A stretch of 64,000 nt of DNA from Escherichia phage vB_EcoM_NBG1. A model generated the notes under the pieces. That model worked only from the letters and a program-made list of their open reading frames with translations. It searched no databases and was not told where the DNA came from. Positions 450 to 8,253 of the stretch are shown here, in pieces; the stretch's first letter is position 1; every line of letters starts with the position of its first letter. The stretch lies in the sequence record MH243438.1; one strand, 5' to 3'. The translations under genes were made by a program, and so were the position numbers.

Positions 450-764
450 TTATTCTTTAGGGAAGTTTTTAGAGTATGCATCATAAAGTTTATTACCAAT
501 ACGACGGAAGACTTTAGCTGCAAAACGGTTTTCAGGGTTTTTAATCATGATTTGCATCATGTAAGTTCCTGCATCCGAAAGAGCTTCTTCATAGTACCCA
601 TTAATTTCTTTAAGAGTCCTACGTTTACCACCAGGACCATCAACAGTAATTTTCCATTTACCTGTAGAAGTGCGGCTCGGTGGCTCAACTTGTTCAATCC
701 AAATATAACCACCTTCAACGCGTTGGTTGGCGGATTCTGCAATAAATTCTTTATACGTTTTCAT
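450..764 (-). CDS. internal-protein-like small protein (MKTYKEFIAE)
   Basis: Capsid-targeting-type N-terminus; SD AGGAA upstream; repeated early promoter cassette at 765-826. Confidence 0.6.
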   Translation of the reverse strand: MKTYKEFIAESANQRVEGGYIWIEQVEPPSRTSTGKWKITVDGPGGKRRTLKEINGYYEEALSDAGTYMMQIMIKNPENRFAAKVFRRIGNKLYDAYSKNFPKE

Positions 765-828
765 TTTTTGTTTCCTTGTTTGTTTTGATAGAGTAATTAT
801 ACCATATTAATACTTAAGCGTAAACAAT

Positions 829-1089
829 TTAAGCTTTACCGCCAGAAATAATTCCGAAGTTGTTAAAATCGTATCCAGTATCGTCAACATCCACTTTAGG
901 ACTTGCTACAACATAAGCAATTTCACTACGTTTTGCATAGGTGTTGATTTCTTTACCATCGCCACCTAAGAAAGAATACCCATTACGTTTTAATGAGCCA
1001 AAGTCTTCGGCATCACCAATGAAAGCTTTAACTTTAAATTTAGGACATTTGGCATCTGCTTCAATGATAAATTCTTGATACATTTTCAT
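829..1089 (-). CDS. internal-protein-like small protein (MKMYQEFIIE)
   Basis: Capsid-targeting-type N-terminus; immediately downstream of denV on the minus strand. Confidence 0.55.
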   Translation of the reverse strand: MKMYQEFIIEADAKCPKFKVKAFIGDAEDFGSLKRNGYSFLGGDGKEINTYAKRSEIAYVVASPKVDVDDTGYDFNNFGIISGGKA

Positions 1090-1095
1090 TTTTCC

Positions 1096-1509
1096 TTAGT
1101 AAATTGATTTACCATAGTATTTGTACCAAGTCGGACGTTGAGCAATTTTTTCATCTAAGCGTGCTTGACTTATCGCAATGGACTCTTCGGACGGGATGTA
1201 ATTATTACGAAATTCTACAGGAATGTCGGAAATATCCTGGACTGTCGTGTCCTTGATTTTGAAACCACGTTTCAAACATTCGGCTATTAGCTCGATTTGA
1301 CGTAAACGTAAAAATTCGAGTTTGTCGTAAAAGAATGTTACGTGACCTGTGCCTAAGATAAATGTTGGAGAGATTTTAAAATCTTTTACACGTTTACCAT
1401 TTTGAACATGTTTACGGACTGCACCAAATACGCGTGGTAATTCACGATACTCAGCCATAAGATGTTGGTCGGACAGTTCAGAAACAAGTGTTAAATTGAT
1501 ACGAGTCAT
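1096..1509 (-). CDS. denV: endonuclease V, pyrimidine-dimer DNA glycosylase
   Basis: Near-identical to recalled T4 DenV ([12 protein letters not shown]...[12 protein letters not shown]); start moved to ATG at 1509 (MTRINL) preceded by GGAGG. Confidence 0.9.
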
Positions 1510-1567
1510 AATTTCCTCCAAGTAGTTGATAGATGTATAGTATCAAAGTCCTTGGAGGAAGTAAACA
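1510..1567 (-). promoter_or_regulatory. early promoter cassette with stem-loop (GTTTAC -35, 10-bp inverted repeat TTCCTCCAAG/CTTGGAGGAA, SD) upstream of denV
   Basis: RC of plus gtaaac at ~1561-1566; inverted repeat flanks the -10 region; GGAGG SD before ATG. Confidence 0.5.
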
Positions 1568-1849
1568 CTATTTTTCTGAAGCGCCTGAAATATATTTTTC
1601 AAGACGTTGTTTCATTAGCGAGCCGTTCTTAGCGATTTCTTCTGGTTTATCGCACATACGCAACAAGGCTTCAAGCTTAGCGATATCGCTGGTACGTTCA
1701 AATTTGCGAGTATCTATCTTACTAGCAAGTTCAGAAATACGTGCTAATAGACTTTCGGCTTCAACCAAAGCTGCACCTAACTTAGTTGCAAATGTGTCAG
1801 TAGCTTCATTAAGAATAGATTCTGATAAAAATTCACTATATGTTTTCAT
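1568..1849 (-). CDS. internal-protein-like small protein ([10 protein letters not shown])
   Basis: Internal ATG at 1849 with SD GGAAAG; capsid-targeting-type N-terminus; sits between denV and e where T4 has ipII/ipIII; ATGA overlap with e stop. Confidence 0.6.
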
Positions 1850-2334
1850 ATATACGCTTTCCAAGTTCCTGTTTTAAATGTTGAGATTACGCGTTTCGCG
1901 CGATTAGGTGTCTGACGATACCATTTAGATTGGGCTAGATTTACTGCCGCTTCATCCCAACGTTTCTGTTGAAGCATACGAAGAGAATTAGTAAAACCGG
2001 CGACGCCTGCTACGCCCATTTGGAAGACCATATTGACCAATGCACATCGACGAACCGCATCTAAAGAATCATATACCGGTTTAAGTTTAGCATTACCCAA
2101 GATTCCGCGAACGGCTTTATCAACGTCTTCATTAAATAGCTTTTCAGCCTCATCAAGGGTAATTGTACCGTTGCATTTACGACCGATCATTCTGTCAAGT
2201 TCAGCTTTAGCTACGGCTAAAGACGGGTTCTTTGTTACTAAATGGCCTATGCCAATCGTCCAAAAGCCTTCAGTGTCTTTGTATAAAGTCAGTCTAAGAC
2301 CTTCGTCATTACGAAGCATTTCAAATATATTCAT
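1846..2334 (-). CDS. e: lysozyme (endolysin)
   Basis: Near-identical to recalled T4 lysozyme ([21 protein letters not shown]...); start at ATG 2334 preceded by GGGAGG. Confidence 0.93.
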
Positions 2335-2368
2335 AATACCTCCCACGTTTATAGGAGGTATTTATTAC

Positions 2369-2827
2369 TTATAGTAGGGTAGTGAGTACCTTATATAACG
2401 ATTTGCCCATCACATATTCCCATTGAGAAGGTTTAATTAAAGCGAATGCATCAAATTCAGGAATCTGTCGTCCGTCTGGGAATGTATGATAGGAATTACA
2501 AACACTGTTTCTGAATTGCTCGTGCTCTACAGGGATGGTATATAGGAACAGATGAATATTCTTATTGTCTGAGTAATGATGTTCACCTAGGTCTTTCAGG
2601 AAGGCAGGGTCGTATTGTGTAAACCCAGTTTCTTCTTCGCATTCACGAATAGCGGCTTCAATAGGAGATTCGCCAGGTTCGACACGGCCTTTAGGAATAT
2701 CCCACCTATGAGCTAATGCACCTTTAGAACGAGAACCAGTTACACGCCCCATGAATAATTCTTTATCTTCGGTAAGGAAAATAATACCGGCTGATAGTTC
2801 TTTCACTTTATTTTTCTTACTCATCAT
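2369..2827 (-). CDS. nudE: Nudix hydrolase
   Basis: Nudix box G-x5-E-x7-REC-EEETG (GRVEPGESPIEAAIRECEEETGF); position after e as in T4 e.1. Confidence 0.85.
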   Translation of the reverse strand: MMSKKNKVKELSAGIIFLTEDKELFMGRVTGSRSKGALAHRWDIPKGRVEPGESPIEAAIRECEEETGFTQYDPAFLKDLGEHHYSDNKNIHLFLYTIPVEHEQFRNSVCNSYHTFPDGRQIPEFDAFALIKPSQWEYVMGKSLYKVLTTLL

Positions 2828-3053
2828 CTCGGTCCCATGATTTGGCCATTAATTCGGACATAAATTCTTCAATGCGCGTTTCTTTAGATGGACTTTCACT
2901 ATTAGAGACCGCAAGTTTGTAATCTGCAATAGGACAGAACATATCAAGGTCCATATTAAGGTCGTCTTTGATTTTTTCTTCTGACACATCTTTATCGTAT
3001 GTGTACAGATAACTATCACATGATTCTGATTTAATGTAAATTGCTATACTCAT
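2817..3053 (-). CDS. hypothetical protein
   Basis: ORF with internal ATG 3053 (MSIAIY) 9 nt after AGGA; ATGA overlap with upstream gene stop. Confidence 0.5.
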   Translation of the reverse strand: MSIAIYIKSESCDSYLYTYDKDVSEEKIKDDLNMDLDMFCPIADYKLAVSNSESPSKETRIEEFMSELMAKSWDRDDE

Positions 3054-3541
3054 CTCAAATTCCTGCATTCGGTAATAAAACGTTCAACTTCATTATTCTT
3101 GGCCTTTATCTTGTCTTTACGTTCCTGTAAACTACTTTTAACAAGATTAATAATGATGCCTACAGTACCGCCGCCAATGATGCCGCCAACAACACTTATG
3201 ATAATAGATGCTAATAAGATAGCAATAATATCAACAAAACCGAAAGAACTCACCTTAGTACTAAAAAACCATACCGACGGTACAAATATAATCCATCCTG
3301 TTATCCATTGGCACTTATTGAAAAACTTTTCAAGCTCAGCTTGAGTTGTTCGTATTACTTCATCGATAGGTTGATATCCATTAATGTATCTGTTCACGAT
3401 AATACCTGCTGGCTGGTCGATTTTAAATTCTTGGCAAATATGTTTCACTAAGTAGGATGGACATCCTGTCCAATCTACTGAATAGTATGAAATACCTTCG
3501 TTGCCATCGTCTATATTAGACCAATATGTTTTGTTAATCAT
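3050..3541 (-). CDS. hypothetical membrane protein with C-terminal FITECR tail
   Basis: Two hydrophobic segments (WITGWIIFVPSVWFF; FVDIIAILLASIIISVVGGIIGGG); C-terminal ...ERFITECRNLR. Confidence 0.55.
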   Translation of the reverse strand: MINKTYWSNIDDGNEGISYYSVDWTGCPSYLVKHICQEFKIDQPAGIIVNRYINGYQPIDEVIRTTQAELEKFFNKCQWITGWIIFVPSVWFFSTKVSSFGFVDIIAILLASIIISVVGGIIGGGTVGIIINLVKSSLQERKDKIKAKNNEVERFITECRNLR

Positions 3542-4228: not shown

Positions 4229-4534
4229 TTATTTTCCTCGACATTCTTTAATGAAATTTTCTAGATTGGTAGATTCAATAGCTTTTTTACGAGCTTCTGC
4301 ATGTTCTTCTTCAGACAATTTACATTTATAATTAACCCAGACATTATGGTCGAAACTAGTCGTGGCATATAATAACAATGCTCCAACGAATAGCAAAAAC
4401 GGCGATAAGAATACAAAACCAGGAACACCATCCATATCGTAAGCCTTTTGTAATACTGCAACAGAAAGAGCTGCGTAAAAAGGTGATGCAAATATTGTTA
4501 AAAGACCAATTCGGTTGGTTTCGCCTAATTTCAT
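4229..4534 (-). CDS. hypothetical small membrane protein with C-terminal ENFIKECR tail
   Basis: Two hydrophobic segments; C-terminal ...LENFIKECRGK; SD GAGGAGAA upstream; 1-nt spacer to next gene. Confidence 0.55.
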   Translation of the reverse strand: MKLGETNRIGLLTIFASPFYAALSVAVLQKAYDMDGVPGFVFLSPFLLFVGALLLYATTSFDHNVWVNYKCKLSEEEHAEARKKAIESTNLENFIKECRGK

Positions 4535-4873: not shown

Positions 4874-5830
4874 TTATTTGAAAGGTTTTACCATATGAAA
4901 GTTTTGTTTGAAACGCTTGACGTAATCGTCGTGTCCTAAGCTTTGGTACATACTTACTACTTTGCTATAATTTTCCCAAGCGAACTCACGGAACCATCCT
5001 GATGTGATTGATGTACAGACCTTTTCAAGGGCCATCATAAAACTATCACGTGGATGGATTTTAAAGTCGTTAGGAATCTGTGAACGTTCAAGAGCTAATA
5101 CACAAGCTTCTTCATATACACCGGCTAATTTAACCATTTCTGGTAATGATTTGAACTTCTCGCGTGATGTCATAACTTCTGAGCCTTCTTTCATATAAAA
5201 CTTATAAGCAGGCTGGTCAGTTAGTGCAATGGCTTCATGAATAGTATCATGGTCATATGTATAGATGTCATCTTTAAAGAACGCACTTTTAGAAGTGTCA
5301 AGAACTGGGTGAGCATAATTCAAGGTTTCTTTCTGGCGTTTCAGCATAATTTCAGTAAGTTCATCGTTCAGTGTAACACCTTTACCACGAAGATACTGAA
5401 TATGATTCATAGTCTTTAAAAAGAATGGATTATTTTTCTTGAAACGATGAGACATCTTAATTGCAAGACATATCTCGGGAGTTGCCCAGTAAAACCCGTT
5501 CAAACGGTCTTTAGTCAAATTTTTCTTGGCGTATTTTAAAAGGTCATAAGAAGACGTGAAATCTTCAGGAGTGAGTTCACCAACTAATTCACGGACATTA
5601 GTGATTGCCGGAACAATATATGCTTCAAAATGAGTTTCGCGTCCATTATGGAAGCATTTGAAAACTTGGACGTCAGGGTTATCTTGGTGAACGTATACAC
5701 CCATCATTTGATTTTTGAATGCATTCCAAGAACATTGGTCCGCAATAAAATCCCAATCACTATTTTTGATAGCGCTAGAATCAATAAGACCATGATAGTG
5801 AAGTGCACGAGAACCAATAACTAACATCAT
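4874..5830 (-). CDS. hypothetical protein, possible nucleotidyltransferase fold
   Basis: 318 aa; N-terminal VIGSRALHYHGLIDSSAIKNSDWDFIA resembles GS...DxD of Pol-beta-type NTases but spacing is atypical; SD GAGGAA. Confidence 0.3.
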   Translation of the reverse strand: MMLVIGSRALHYHGLIDSSAIKNSDWDFIADQCSWNAFKNQMMGVYVHQDNPDVQVFKCFHNGRETHFEAYIVPAITNVRELVGELTPEDFTSSYDLLKYAKKNLTKDRLNGFYWATPEICLAIKMSHRFKKNNPFFLKTMNHIQYLRGKGVTLNDELTEIMLKRQKETLNYAHPVLDTSKSAFFKDDIYTYDHDTIHEAIALTDQPAYKFYMKEGSEVMTSREKFKSLPEMVKLAGVYEEACVLALERSQIPNDFKIHPRDSFMMALEKVCTSITSGWFREFAWENYSKVVSMYQSLGHDDYVKRFKQNFHMVKPFK

Positions 5831-5855: not shown

Positions 5856-6095
5856 TTAAATTTCACGACATGCGATATTATATTCATCCCAGAGGTCATC
5901 ATGTGAAGCCTCTACCAATGGAACGATTGTACCGTTTATGTCTTCATTATAAGGGCAAATTGTACAGTGCGCATCTTCGAATCGGATGCCTTTGTGTTCA
6001 GATTTTTTATAACGCATATCGAATATCTTTGCAAACTTTTCACGAGTAATAGTTTTAGCAACCACTTTGGTTCCGATACTTTCGTAATAAATCAT
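5856..6095 (-). CDS. hypothetical protein
   Basis: Internal ATG 6095 (MIYYESIG) 8 nt after GGAG; contains HCTICPY; C-terminal ...NIACREI. Confidence 0.5.
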   Translation of the reverse strand: MIYYESIGTKVVAKTITREKFAKIFDMRYKKSEHKGIRFEDAHCTICPYNEDINGTIVPLVEASHDDLWDEYNIACREI

Positions 6096-6157
6096 TGTGG
6101 ACTCCATTTGTTTTGATAGGACTACTATAACATAGCCCTATCTTGTTGTAAACTGTT
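6096..6157 (-). promoter_or_regulatory. early promoter/stem-loop cassette
   Basis: Minus-strand: AACAGTTTACAACAAGATAGGGCTATGTTATAGTAGTCCTATCAAAACAAATGGAGTCCACAATG; -35 GTTTAC, -10 TATAGT, 18-nt spacer. Confidence 0.6.
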
Positions 6158-6355
6158 TTAGCAAGAATAACTAGATGATACCCAGCCTTGAACAGTGATA
6201 CTATTGTGGGATAATGAGATCGCGTCCTGGAGATTCAGACCTGCGTTATCTTCAATCCATAATGTAACTTCTTCGCGTTCTTCTGTTGCAATTTGGAACA
6301 GGTTTTCCAGAGCAGCTACTGCCGTACGTACAGCACAATCTAATTCACGAGACAT
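6158..6355 (-). CDS. small protein, paralog family with C-terminal GWVSSS..C
   Basis: 65 aa ending ...VQGWVSSSYSC; third of three tandem paralogs. Confidence 0.55.
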   Translation of the reverse strand: MSRELDCAVRTAVAALENLFQIATEEREEVTLWIEDNAGLNLQDAISLSHNSITVQGWVSSSYSC

Positions 6356-6364
6356 ATTGTTTCC

Positions 6365-6637
6365 TTAGCAAGTGTGAGAAGATGCGACCCAACCACCAGT
6401 TTCGAGGCTCAGGTTGTAGTCGTATTGGTAAACGTCAGCCCATTCAGCATAGCCGTTTTTTGTACAACGTTCAAGATCGGCTTTAAGATGTCCGGGTGAA
6501 TGATAGGTTCCACCCATACCATAAGCTGGATACAAGTCGAATGTTGTGTTTTGTTTATCAGCAATTTCTTTGGCAGCCTCAATAGCTGCATAGATTTTTG
6601 CTACAGCTTCAGCCAGTTCGGTTTGTTCTTTAGACAT
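6365..6637 (-). CDS. small protein, paralog family with C-terminal GWVASS..C
   Basis: 90 aa ending ...ETGGWVASSHTC; junction TGCTAAGGAAACAATATG to next gene. Confidence 0.55.
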   Translation of the reverse strand: MSKEQTELAEAVAKIYAAIEAAKEIADKQNTTFDLYPAYGMGGTYHSPGHLKADLERCTKNGYAEWADVYQYDYNLSLETGGWVASSHTC

Positions 6638-6646
6638 AATGATTCC

Positions 6647-6952
6647 TTAGCACAACGCAGAAGACGAAACCCAAGCACCTTCAGTAATAACGTAACCGTT
6701 ACCTTCACGCTTAACATCGCCACCATTATTTTCAATTTCATCTTTCATCCACTGGGATACGATTTCACCCTTAGGATAATAAGTACGACCACTACCATAA
6801 TCACCTACAGAAAATGATACAGCATATTGGTCTGCGATCTTTGTTGCTTCTTCTTCGATACGTTCAGCTTGATTCAGAAGTTTATAAATTGCATCTGAAG
6901 CGGATTTGGCATCATTAAACTCTGGTACTTTAATTTCAATAATCTTACTCAT
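6647..6952 (-). CDS. small protein, paralog family with C-terminal AWVSSS..C
   Basis: 101 aa ending ...TEGAWVSSSALC; junction TGCTAAGGAATCATTATG. Confidence 0.55.
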   Translation of the reverse strand: MSKIIEIKVPEFNDAKSASDAIYKLLNQAERIEEEATKIADQYAVSFSVGDYGSGRTYYPKGEIVSQWMKDEIENNGGDVKREGNGYVITEGAWVSSSALC

Positions 6953-7308
6953 TTTCTACATTCCTTAATAAAGTTTTCGATTGTTTCATTTTCACGTTTA
7001 GCTAGGAGTTCATTATAACTAATCATTTGAGAAGCGTAAACCTTTTTATTTTTCTTGTTATGGTTTATAAAATCGTAGTAAAAATAGACCACAGTACAAA
7101 ATGATGCGATGGATGCAAAGGCTTGGGTATACCGTAAGTCCTGCCATTGGTCTGTGAATCCACCGGTATTCCCTATAAATCCTAACACAACTCCGTCAAT
7201 AAGAAATCCAACTAATCCAAAGGCAAATCCCATGCCAATACTCATAATAAAAATTAGAATGTTCTCGCCGAGAGAAGGCCGAACAGTTAAGAGTTTAGGT
7301 TTTTGCAT
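6949..7308 (-). CDS. hypothetical membrane protein with C-terminal ENFIKECR tail
   Basis: Hydrophobic segments (ILIFIMSIGMGFAFGLVGFLIDGVVLGFIG; FASIASFCTVVYFYY); C-terminal ...IENFIKECRK. Confidence 0.55.
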   Translation of the reverse strand: MQKPKLLTVRPSLGENILIFIMSIGMGFAFGLVGFLIDGVVLGFIGNTGGFTDQWQDLRYTQAFASIASFCTVVYFYYDFINHNKKNKKVYASQMISYNELLAKRENETIENFIKECRK

Positions 7309-7682
7309 CTTATTTCCTTAACGAATTCCATAGCTTCTTCGTATTCGTACTTTTTAACAGCTTCGTCATACTGAGCTTGGGCTTTTGCGCACTGAACTTT
7401 CCATTCGCGTACTCGAGCTCTATAATGACGTCCTTGGTACCAATATCCCACCCAGTTAATAGGCATTAATAAAAATGGCACAATAAACGACCCGGCTATA
7501 ATAAGTAAAAACACTGCATCAGACGATATAACTTCACTAGAATCTAAAACAGCTCCTATAATCATAAAGATTAAAAATGCTAAAGCTAAAATAGGGCCAA
7601 ATAGTACTTCGTTTGGGATTAATTTACGTTTGTATTCGTATGCCCAGGGCTTAATTGGTTGATAAAGGGTTGGCTTTGACAT
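7287..7682 (-). CDS. hypothetical membrane protein with degenerate C-terminal EFVKEIRC tail
   Basis: Start moved to ATG 7682 (MSKPTLYQ); two hydrophobic segments; 3' end overlaps next gene start by 22 nt. Confidence 0.5.
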   Translation of the reverse strand: MSKPTLYQPIKPWAYEYKRKLIPNEVLFGPILALAFLIFMIIGAVLDSSEVISSDAVFLLIIAGSFIVPFLLMPINWVGYWYQGRHYRARVREWKVQCAKAQAQYDEAVKKYEYEEAMEFVKEIRCKNLNS

Positions 7683-8253
7683 ATTCTCTACATTCCATAA
7701 TAAATTGCTCAAGGATTAAATTGTTAGTGAAATTAGGACTAACAACCATAGTTTCATAAAGCGCATCAATAGCACTTAAAGCATCAACTCTCTTAAGCAA
7801 AGGCTTGCCTTCATACATAGTTTCAGAATCGACGATTAAAGTGAAGTAGTATTTTTTATTATTGACCAGAACTTCTGTATCAATATAAAACATGTTAGAC
7901 CTCAGAAGCTTATCTCTAAAACCATAATAATCTTTAGAGCGTTCGCTGATATATTCCCATTCAGTGTTTAAACAACAAACAGACCATGTAGGAGCAACGA
8001 AATCGGTGAATCTAATATCATGGTCTGCAACTAGTTTAGCAATAGCTCCGATATCATGAATCATAATACCTGGGGTTAATAAAGATTTTCTGCTATGGCT
8101 AGCCGTTTTCTCAGTAGTCTCATAAGAAGACGACCAGTACCATTTACGTCCAGTTGCAACATATCGTAATGAATCAACTAAAGACGTAGGTGGATTTACC
8201 TTATCTCGGAACTCTTCGAACATTGAGTCAATATCATTATTTTGGTTTCGCAT
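7651..8253 (-). CDS. hypothetical protein with C-terminal QFIMECRE motif
   Basis: Start at ATG 8253 (MRNQNN) 6 nt after AAGGAG; no obvious TM segment; motif 13 aa from the C-terminus. Confidence 0.5.
   Translation of the reverse strand: MRNQNNDIDSMFEEFRDKVNPPTSLVDSLRYVATGRKWYWSSSYETTEKTASHSRKSLLTPGIMIHDIGAIAKLVADHDIRFTDFVAPTWSVCCLNTEWEYISERSKDYYGFRDKLLRSNMFYIDTEVLVNNKKYYFTLIVDSETMYEGKPLLKRVDALSAIDALYETMVVSPNFTNNLILEQFIMECREYVKANPLSTN

Follow-up and report, generated by a model that had tools for sequence, protein, structure and literature searches.

A phage family of small proteins with a conserved C-terminal cysteine is genetically linked to a DUF7277/DUF7275 gene, suggesting a putative enzyme–client module

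Results

Three consecutive small genes with a common C-terminal tail

The window analysed here, a stretch of 64,000 nucleotides of Escherichia phage vB_EcoM_NBG1 (MH243438.1), is a segment of a Mosigvirus (RB69-like T-even) genome with about 98% identity to vB_EcoM_SA79RD, ATK47 and APCEc01. Both the list of open reading frames and the sequence itself place three consecutive genes of 101, 90 and 65 aa on the minus strand, from 6952 down to 6158, in an early region of accessory genes, with e, nudE and e.2 on its lysozyme side and e.3 on the other; all genes there run on the minus strand. Immediately before their stop codons the proteins end in EGAWVSSSALC (101 aa), TGGWVASSHTC (90 aa) and VQGWVSSSYSC (65 aa). 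The genes and the features around them are the following.

6647..6952, minus strand: paralog 1, 101 aa (RB69ORF138c/139c); N-terminal helix, YGSGRTYYP loop and tail GAWVSSSALC-stop
6647..6679, minus strand: tail codons of paralog 1, G-A-W-V-S-S-S-A-L-C and stop, read from the sequence
6638..6646, minus strand: 9-nt junction GGAATCATT, which with the preceding TAA gives TAAGGA, the Shine-Dalgarno sequence for paralog 2
6365..6637, minus strand: paralog 2, 90 aa (RB69ORF137c); N-terminal helix, YGMGGTYHSP loop and tail GGWVASSHTC-stop
6365..6397, minus strand: tail codons of paralog 2, G-G-W-V-A-S-S-H-T-C and stop, read from the sequence
6356..6364, minus strand: 9-nt junction GGAAACAAT, the Shine-Dalgarno sequence for paralog 3
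6158..6355, minus strand: paralog 3, 65 aa (RB69ORF136c); helix and tail QGWVSSSYSC-stop, without the central YGxGG loop
6158..6190, minus strand: tail codons of paralog 3, Q-G-W-V-S-S-S-Y-S-C and stop, read from the sequence
7012..7040, minus strand: promoter-like TTTACG-17-TATAAT inside e.3, upstream of paralog 1, from a consensus scan only
6124..6152, minus strand: promoter-like TTTACA-17-TATAGT, with TG, just 3′ of paralog 3, from a consensus scan only

The initial annotation, which gave no strand, had described the junctions between these genes as conserved, which holds for the two internal ones. They read TGC TAA GGAATCATT ATG and TGC TAA GGAAACAAT ATG, and both take the form TGC-TAA-GGAA(T/A)CA(T/A)T-ATG, in which Cys codon, stop, Shine-Dalgarno sequence and start follow one another; the 65-aa gene has no such junction at its 3′ end, where AACAG... 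comes next. Stop/Shine-Dalgarno junctions of the GGAATCATT type are consistent with translational coupling, and since the ATG of paralog 1 also overlaps the stop codon of e.3, the three genes are likely translated as a coupled string. At the place equivalent to 7012..7040, the record OL960576 carries an annotated middle promoter. The second promoter-like site, at 6124..6152, lies upstream of an 83-aa ORF and of the partner gene described below, and OL960576 annotates a terminator there.

Comparison of the three sequences confirmed that the genes are true paralogs of one small-protein family, as first proposed, with a similarity that reaches past the tail. Across 73 residues, 30% of positions are identical between the 90- and 101-aa proteins (E = 3e-6), which both match phrog_899 (E = 3.5e-19 and 1.3e-22, respectively). 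The 65-aa protein, which matches phrog_4882 (E = 7.7e-37), has the N-terminal helix and the last ~25–37 residues in common with the other two (E = 4e-4 and 1e-3), and in the alignment the central SF..YGxGxTYYP segment is missing from it. Likeness limited to the last 10 residues and explained by junction DNA, the outcome named at the outset as fatal to paralogy, is therefore not what the alignments give.

The Cys-stop block that had drawn attention to these genes is present in all three, and it proves to be the hallmark of the family. A six-frame scan of all 64 kb with the expression W-[VILA]-[SAT]-S-[SAT]...C-stop matched at these three sites only. The codons of the tail differ among the copies (Val as GTT, GTC or GTA; other positions as TCG/GCA/TCA and TCT/TCT/AGT), and 175 distinct tails from other phages use TGC (121) or TGT (54) for Cys, draw Ser from both codon boxes, and stop at TAA (142), TGA (29) or TAG (4). 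Because synonymous codons and stops vary in this way between copies and between phages, we conclude that the tail is under protein-level selection; the same diversity rules out junction DNA as the cause of the motif.

An old set of paralogs under purifying selection

Each paralog of the window has its own ortholog at 50–64% identity in other T4-like genera, in which the genes follow one another in the order 101-type, 90-type, ..., 65-type and then the partner gene; the orthologs of paralog 3 (57–63% identity in other genera) are always the copy nearest to that gene. Between the paralogs, identity is only about 30%. Orthologs at 50–64% in a kept order, set against copies that are so much less alike, argue against reading the local triplication originally envisaged as recent, and by these comparisons the paralog set is ancient.

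Diversifying selection, the second element of that proposal, finds no gene-wide signal either, since the ortholog dN/dS of the small genes (0.15–0.46, Nei-Gojobori) points to purifying selection; the corresponding value for the partner gene is 0.07. The check suggested for the three copies, by alignment and dN/dS, bore fruit in its first half, with the alignment revealing paralogy, and failed in its second, since dS between the paralogs is saturated and their dN/dS uninformative. Copy number per phage ranges from one (for example in PG7-like and Aeromonas phages) up to five or six. In LF82 phages the 90-aa allele is 78% identical in amino-acid sequence and its neighbours are 100% identical, which looks like a replacement by recombination within Mosigvirus.

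A large family defined by a C-terminal signature

Searching about 5.8 billion proteins with a profile yielded 146 relatives, and an exhaustive HMMER search of 1.84 billion cluster representatives returned 579 clusters (50% identity) at E ≤ 1e-3; among the best 150 of these 579, lengths run from 67 to 175 aa and the match almost always reaches the last residue. Paralog 2 itself occurs in 281 phage records by tblastn. Typical members combine an Ala/Glu-rich helix (A..A..IADE.G..F), an AYGMGGTYYP loop, a variable, mostly acidic linker and a closing G-W-x-(S/A/P)-S-S-x-x-C. The loop is usual in the family and is not found in every member. In the numbering of the 101-aa protein, the invariant residues of the family are W94, S97, S98 and C101, and all three window proteins carry the defining C-terminal W-x-(S/A/P)-S-S-x-x-C. 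Cys is the exact last residue in 229 of 248 homologs and the penultimate one in 12 more, and in 148 of 242 members the Cys of this terminal region is the only one in the protein.

The bodies in front of the tail are of several types. Only helix and tail are common to the 65-aa type, a GFWFSSSMSC type and a type that carries an internal WLNSSC in addition to a terminal WYPSSC, the latter two being extra types found in other genera. The terminal Cys is missing from some paralogs, such as one ending in ...NWSNSES in Acinetobacter phage DLP3. Several body types in which only helix and tail are alike would be expected if the tail were the recognition element for a single enzyme.

The proteins are acidic, with pI values in the range 4.2–4.8 and a family median of 4.5. 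Pfam, NCBIfam and PADLOC gave no significant match for the small proteins; the 101-aa protein hit PADLOC's PDC-S49 at an insignificant 12.5 bits (E = 0.01). A PDB profile search with the small family returned only designed helical proteins, along with AcrIIC4 at E about 0.7–1, and the structural neighbours in BFVD were all 'uncharacterized' members of the family itself. Within the syntenic e.2–e.3 interval of T4 we found no homolog. By its sequences and their distribution, the family is phage-restricted, acidic and unannotated. AF2, run on the 101-aa protein with an alignment of 79 sequences, yields a high-confidence model (pLDDT 90.6) with a helix at residues 15–43 and short strands. In this model the tail forms a strand (93–96) and a helix (97–100) that pack on the domain (pLDDT about 87) and does not extend as a free arm.

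Proteins of this kind could be stand-alone inhibitors or immunity proteins, that is, anti-defence factors or mimics of DNA or protein diversified by duplication, next to an enzyme that has nothing to do with them. This is close to the inhibitor or immunity family first suggested, and several properties would suit it: the proteins are small, acidic (like many phage inhibitors) and helical, they lie in an early accessory-gene region, their copy number differs between phages, and one allele has been replaced within Mosigvirus. We nevertheless consider it improbable, since the conservation pattern and the gene linkage described next disfavour it. The profile searches of the PDB and the BFVD comparison revealed no characterised phage anti-defence inhibitor or DNA mimic that the proteins resemble by fold or sequence.

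Linkage to a DUF7277/DUF7275 gene across phages

Downstream of the third paralog the window contains the following features.

5856..6107, minus strand: 83-aa ORF between the small genes and the partner gene; phrog_3723; lineage-specific
4874..5830, minus strand: partner enzyme, putative, 318 aa (RB69ORF134c); phrog_2141
5528..5827, minus strand: DUF7277, residues 2–101 (PF23942; 1.3e-27, 96.7 bits, cut-off 27)
4916..5473, minus strand: DUF7275, residues 120–305 (PF23940; 2.1e-78, 263 bits, cut-off 27)

The partner gene starts 328 nt downstream of paralog 3, past the 83-aa ORF, which is outside the conserved core and occurs in only 9 of 80 loci of the partner. In five further, unrelated contigs with distant family members (a 370-kb jumbo phage and contigs of 122, 75, 90 and 99 kb), a DUF7277/DUF7275 gene lies 0–1.5 kb downstream on the same strand in 5 of 5, the DUF7277 match being absent or faint in the partner proteins of two of them. 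A DNA pattern for YGMGGTYY retrieved 24 IMG/VR loci, and the partner gene is present in every one that has enough downstream flank. In the reverse direction, 68 of 80 diverse IMG/VR loci of the partner carry one to six family ORFs on the same strand by HMM, all of them upstream except for the sixth copy in two six-copy loci, which lies ~1 kb downstream. With a looser tail criterion the count rises to 72 of 80 loci and 203 ORFs. The remaining 8–12 of 80 are without a recognisable client, and in several of these seemingly empty loci the tail has diverged, for instance to ...WDSSSC. When the same-strand ORFs of the 80 loci were clustered, only the partner and the Cys-tailed proteins proved common across lineages; all remaining neighbours reflect lineage synteny.

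Of 50,697 phage records, 733 contain the partner gene, among them phages of Escherichia, Acinetobacter, Aeromonas, Pseudomonas, Vibrio, Klebsiella and other hosts, and the module as a whole is found in T4-like phages, in jumbo phages and in phages of 60–150 kb that infect many proteobacterial genera. Among 185,579 bacterial and archaeal species genomes only four MAG contigs matched the partner, so the module appears to be essentially phage-restricted. Gordonia and Streptomyces phages and KVP40 encode shorter and distant DUF7275 relatives that lack a Cys-tailed neighbour and have a different protein of ~97 aa beside them.

Small genes placed just upstream of one and the same gene across very different phages point to an undescribed module of an enzyme and its clients, and we regard a functional linkage between the small proteins and the DUF7277/DUF7275 protein as very probable. 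The near-constant siting also favours a role of the small proteins as clients of this enzyme over one as free-standing inhibitors or immunity proteins. What survives of the inhibitor idea is the acidic character of the proteins; a stand-alone role is disfavoured by the linkage, and an inhibitory function may instead be what the proteins eventually assume after modification.

The same linkage would arise if the small proteins were adaptors or regulators, subunits that dock into the enzyme by their tails and are not its substrates. Each paralog might then bring the enzyme to another target, or else turn its activity on or off, the tail acting as a plug in the active site in the manner of an antitoxin. 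Variable bodies on a constant tail suit adaptors as well as they suit substrates, and the predicted structured tail would fit them too. Toxin–antitoxin pairs, in contrast to these loci with their one to six copies, keep a 1:1 stoichiometry; PADLOC found no match for the enzyme or for the 65- and 90-aa proteins and only the insignificant PDC-S49 hit for the 101-aa protein, and an Rx4-6H motif was not evident by eye. The invariant Ser-Ser and the terminal Cys, moreover, resemble chemical handles more than a mere docking peptide. We therefore judge an adaptor role to be rather unlikely, and favour a reading in which the tail is acted upon.

What the partner enzyme may be

In alignments of 35–47 diverse sequences, the N-terminal domain of the partner shows the succession hhIGSxA, 10–17 residues, D-x-D-h-h and, further on, an h-E-h-E-h-A strand, with G6-S7 and D25-x-D27 invariant alongside the hExEh strand. 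The signature of the Pol-beta nucleotidyltransferase superfamily is hG[GS]...[DE]h[DE]h...h[DE]h, and at the level of motifs the N-terminus thus appears Pol-beta nucleotidyltransferase-like. DUF6036, described as 'nucleotidyltransferase', is matched by 1 of 35 enzyme members (E = 8e-4); that member was not found among the ten candidates scanned. Some GenBank annotators independently named homologs 'putative nucleotidyltransferase'. Profile searches of the PDB with the whole enzyme, the N-terminal domain and the C-terminal domain returned no meaningful match, an hhalign comparison of the N-terminal domain with a kanamycin nucleotidyltransferase sequence was not significant, and a single-sequence AF2 run on the enzyme (pLDDT 37.7) is unusable as a fold model. 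The nucleotidyltransferase assignment is therefore a motif-level one.

The C-terminal DUF7275 domain has the invariant residues H194, D195, H198, E240, E241, E248 and R249; C272 and G278-W279, within KVCTSITSGWFRE, are nearly invariant, and close members also keep H128. Its predicted secondary structure is all-helical, as read from the single-sequence AF2 run for secondary structure only. The pattern of invariant residues suggests a metal or phosphate site. DUF7275 matched neither the Pfam HD family nor any PDB entry, and inspection of its invariants by eye revealed no HEPN Rx4-6H motif.

A potential metal site of this kind also bears on a third possibility, namely that the small proteins are scaffolds or precursors comparable to those of RiPPs, with chemistry taking place on the C-terminal Cys or on the W...SS...C peptide (cross-linking, oxidation or the building of a small molecule) and the product being released or used as a cofactor, much as in RiPPs of the cofactor type or in C-terminal scaffold pathways of the TglA-Cys kind. 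Several genes resembling precursors are encoded upstream of a single enzyme, conservation is concentrated at the extreme C-terminus, and the His/Asp/Glu cluster H194, D195, H198, E240, E241 and E248 could bind a metal; scaffold pathways that act on a C-terminal Cys have been published (for example 10.1101/338681 and PMC10880893). Against such a pathway, neither a protease nor a transporter nor any known RiPP enzyme family belongs to the conserved core, we detected no homology to MNIO, LanD or radical-SAM enzymes, the proteins are predicted to be folded domains of 65–175 aa and not leader-plus-core peptides, and the module resides in lytic phages among early genes. Taken together, these points leave a precursor role with little probability.

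Discussion

Our comparative analysis suggests how a set of small phage proteins with dissimilar bodies might be served by one enzyme through a common C-terminal element. We propose that the DUF7277–DUF7275 enzyme would recognise the tail that all paralogs have in common and covalently modify it, and that the variable bodies would give the modified proteins separate roles in infected cells, plausibly in host takeover or counter-defence. That the small proteins are clients modified on their shared tail is, in our estimate from sequence comparison, about an even bet (a probability of roughly 0.5). The tail is probably the site of modification, because it presents the hydroxyls of two invariant Ser residues, along with a thiol and a carboxylate at its terminus, beside an invariant Trp. 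Given the Pol-beta signature at the N-terminus, nucleotidyl transfer would be the most likely chemistry, with the terminal Cys or the hydroxyl of a tail Ser as acceptor of the nucleotidyl group; as a specific claim, nucleotidylylation is still doubtful. We advance more tentatively the wider proposal of a phage-wide system of post-translational modification, in which the enzyme would place a nucleotide-derived or other group on W-x-S-S-x-x-Cys and the modified proteins would be the active effectors. A host-directed role of the small proteins is our inference; their genes lie in the midst of other early accessory genes, downstream of sites resembling early or middle promoters.

Several observations weigh against modification of the tail. 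It is modelled as packed on the domain and not as a free substrate arm, some paralogs have lost the Cys, 8–12 of the 80 enzyme loci are clientless, and the distant DUF7275 relatives have no Cys-tailed neighbour.

Among characterised systems, the pairing of GlnD with PII is one of the closest functional analogies, although none of the systems compared here belongs to the same family. GlnD is a uridylyltransferase that acts on the small signalling protein PII. As the motifs suggest for the module described here, a Pol-beta-type domain is followed by a largely helical domain with His and Asp residues, and the dedicated partner is a protein of ~100 aa with a conserved hydroxyl-bearing motif. No homology of sequence or fold was detected between the two pairs, PII is a trimeric ferredoxin-like protein modified on a Tyr of its T-loop and not on a C-terminal tail, the present module belongs to phages and has one to six clients, and an HD-domain identity of DUF7275 is only putative.

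Similarly, MntA–HepT (MNT-HEPN) and AbiEii/MenT place a minimal G-S...D-x-D nucleotidyltransferase beside a small partner that is modified or exerts control. The module studied here differs in its variable number of partners, its restriction to phages and an unrelated partner family, and neither an HEPN Rx4-6H motif noted by eye nor a significant PADLOC match ties it to those systems. An MNT-HEPN or AbiE toxin–antitoxin system was accordingly rejected, PADLOC giving no significant match and each enzyme having one to six partners. ThiS and MoaD with their GG termini and E1-like enzymes, LysW with its EDWGE end and TglA-Cys are small acidic proteins on whose invariant extreme C-terminus a dedicated neighbouring enzyme acts, as we propose for the present family; a ubiquitin-like or sulfur-carrier protein of the ThiS or MoaD type was rejected, as the proteins have neither a beta-grasp fold nor a GG terminus. 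A RiPP cluster was set aside too: nothing beyond the enzyme and the Cys-tailed proteins is common to the lineages, and the neighbours in the window include no RiPP-enzyme Pfam.

The proteins of the window are clear members of phrog_899, phrog_4882 and phrog_2141 with DUF7277 and DUF7275, all of them catalogue entries without assigned function. A search of the accessible literature found no paper naming DUF7275 or DUF7277, the RB69 ORF names or the PHROG identifiers, and broader terms brought up nothing on such a module, on the Cys-terminal signature or on the linkage of the families. New here is the near-obligate gene linkage of the Cys-tailed family with the DUF7277/DUF7275 gene.

Among the early genes of large lytic phages are many small ones without assigned function. 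For the set described here, a strict signature at the C-terminus and a partner enzyme of its own provide an organising principle, so that a list of 'hypothetical proteins' becomes a biochemical hypothesis that can be tested directly. If the proposal is true, it would mean a new chemistry of a C-terminal protein 'tag' and a new enzyme family, together with effectors that are activated by modification, for example against host defence or metabolism. The module could in this way reveal both a new family of protein-modifying enzymes and a new class of phage effectors.

Variation within the array

The middle gene of the array, encoding 90 aa, has a divergent allele in Escherichia phage LF82-2 (L119), with 78% protein identity to the window copy and a dN/dS of 0.46, while the genes on either side of it, for 101 aa and 65 aa, have products 100% identical to those of the window, a pattern that, from sequence comparison, looks like mosaic allele replacement within the array.

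L119, 2501-2773: divergent 90-aa allele

In RB69 (AY303349, 69737-70040), the 101-aa paralog gives a two-piece tblastn match and is broken into two ORFs, RB69ORF138c and RB69ORF139c, the latter 71 aa long and ending in ...SQWYEK. Either a frameshift or an error in sequencing accounts for the split, and the 101-aa copy may therefore be dispensable in that strain.

In a further type of paralog that the window lacks, the tail motif occurs twice, internally (...DWLNSSCYGE...) and terminally (...IWYPSSC), which suggests that the W-x-x-S-S-C unit is modular.

Double-motif paralog in Dhakavirus-like and other T4-like loci
L033, 3800-4117
L036, 4239
L038, 3602

In Acinetobacter phage vB_AbaM_DLP3 (L123, 2328-2946 and 4683-4997), the enzyme gene is preceded by three small paralogs, one of which lacks the Cys and ends in ...NWSNSES; directly downstream of the enzyme is a gene annotated 'putative ADP-ribosyl transferase'.

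Genes around the module

Between array and enzyme in the window lies a lineage-specific ORF, present in 9 of 80 loci, whose product contains HCTICP and another Cys close to its C-terminus.

5856-6107, minus strand: 83-aa ORF, phrog_3723

Five genes flanking the module in the window have a different C-terminal motif in common, ...(E/N)xF(I/V)xEC-R..., in the versions FITECRNLR, FIKECRGK, FIKECRK, FVKEIRCKNLNS and FIMECREY.... These genes are e.2-like, RB69ORF133c-like, e.3, e.4 and e.5; related records label several of their products membrane proteins. They are a second neighbour set with a conserved C-terminal block, in addition to the Cys-tailed array.

EC-R motif genes of the window, minus strand
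3044-3541
4229-4534
6949-7308
7287-7712
7651-8274

Genes for tRNAs or tRNA repair occur within a few kb of the module in several unrelated phages, with tRNA clusters also in the Mosigvirus region; this nearness may simply be early-region clustering.

L004 (jumbo contig), 689-3478: Rnl1 plus PNK
L121 (Streptomyces phage Wakanda), 1-417: polynucleotide kinase
L120 (Gordonia phage ClubL), 5347-7484: tRNA cluster

Distant DUF7275-type enzymes

The DUF7275-type enzymes of ClubL, Wakanda and KVP40 (L122) are distant and shorter (248-263 aa) and keep G-S...D-x-D. None of these three loci has a Cys-tailed neighbour of the enzyme, and in each a protein of ~97 aa adjoins it.

L120, 4100-4390: ~97-aa neighbour
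L121, 4094-4393: ~97-aa neighbour
L122, 2860-3156: ~97-aa neighbour

Judged by their residues (...GYYDSWEGG.., ..YYSYHGYDNYG.., ..GYRDSYVGDF..), these neighbours look mutually related, and they may represent an alternative client family.
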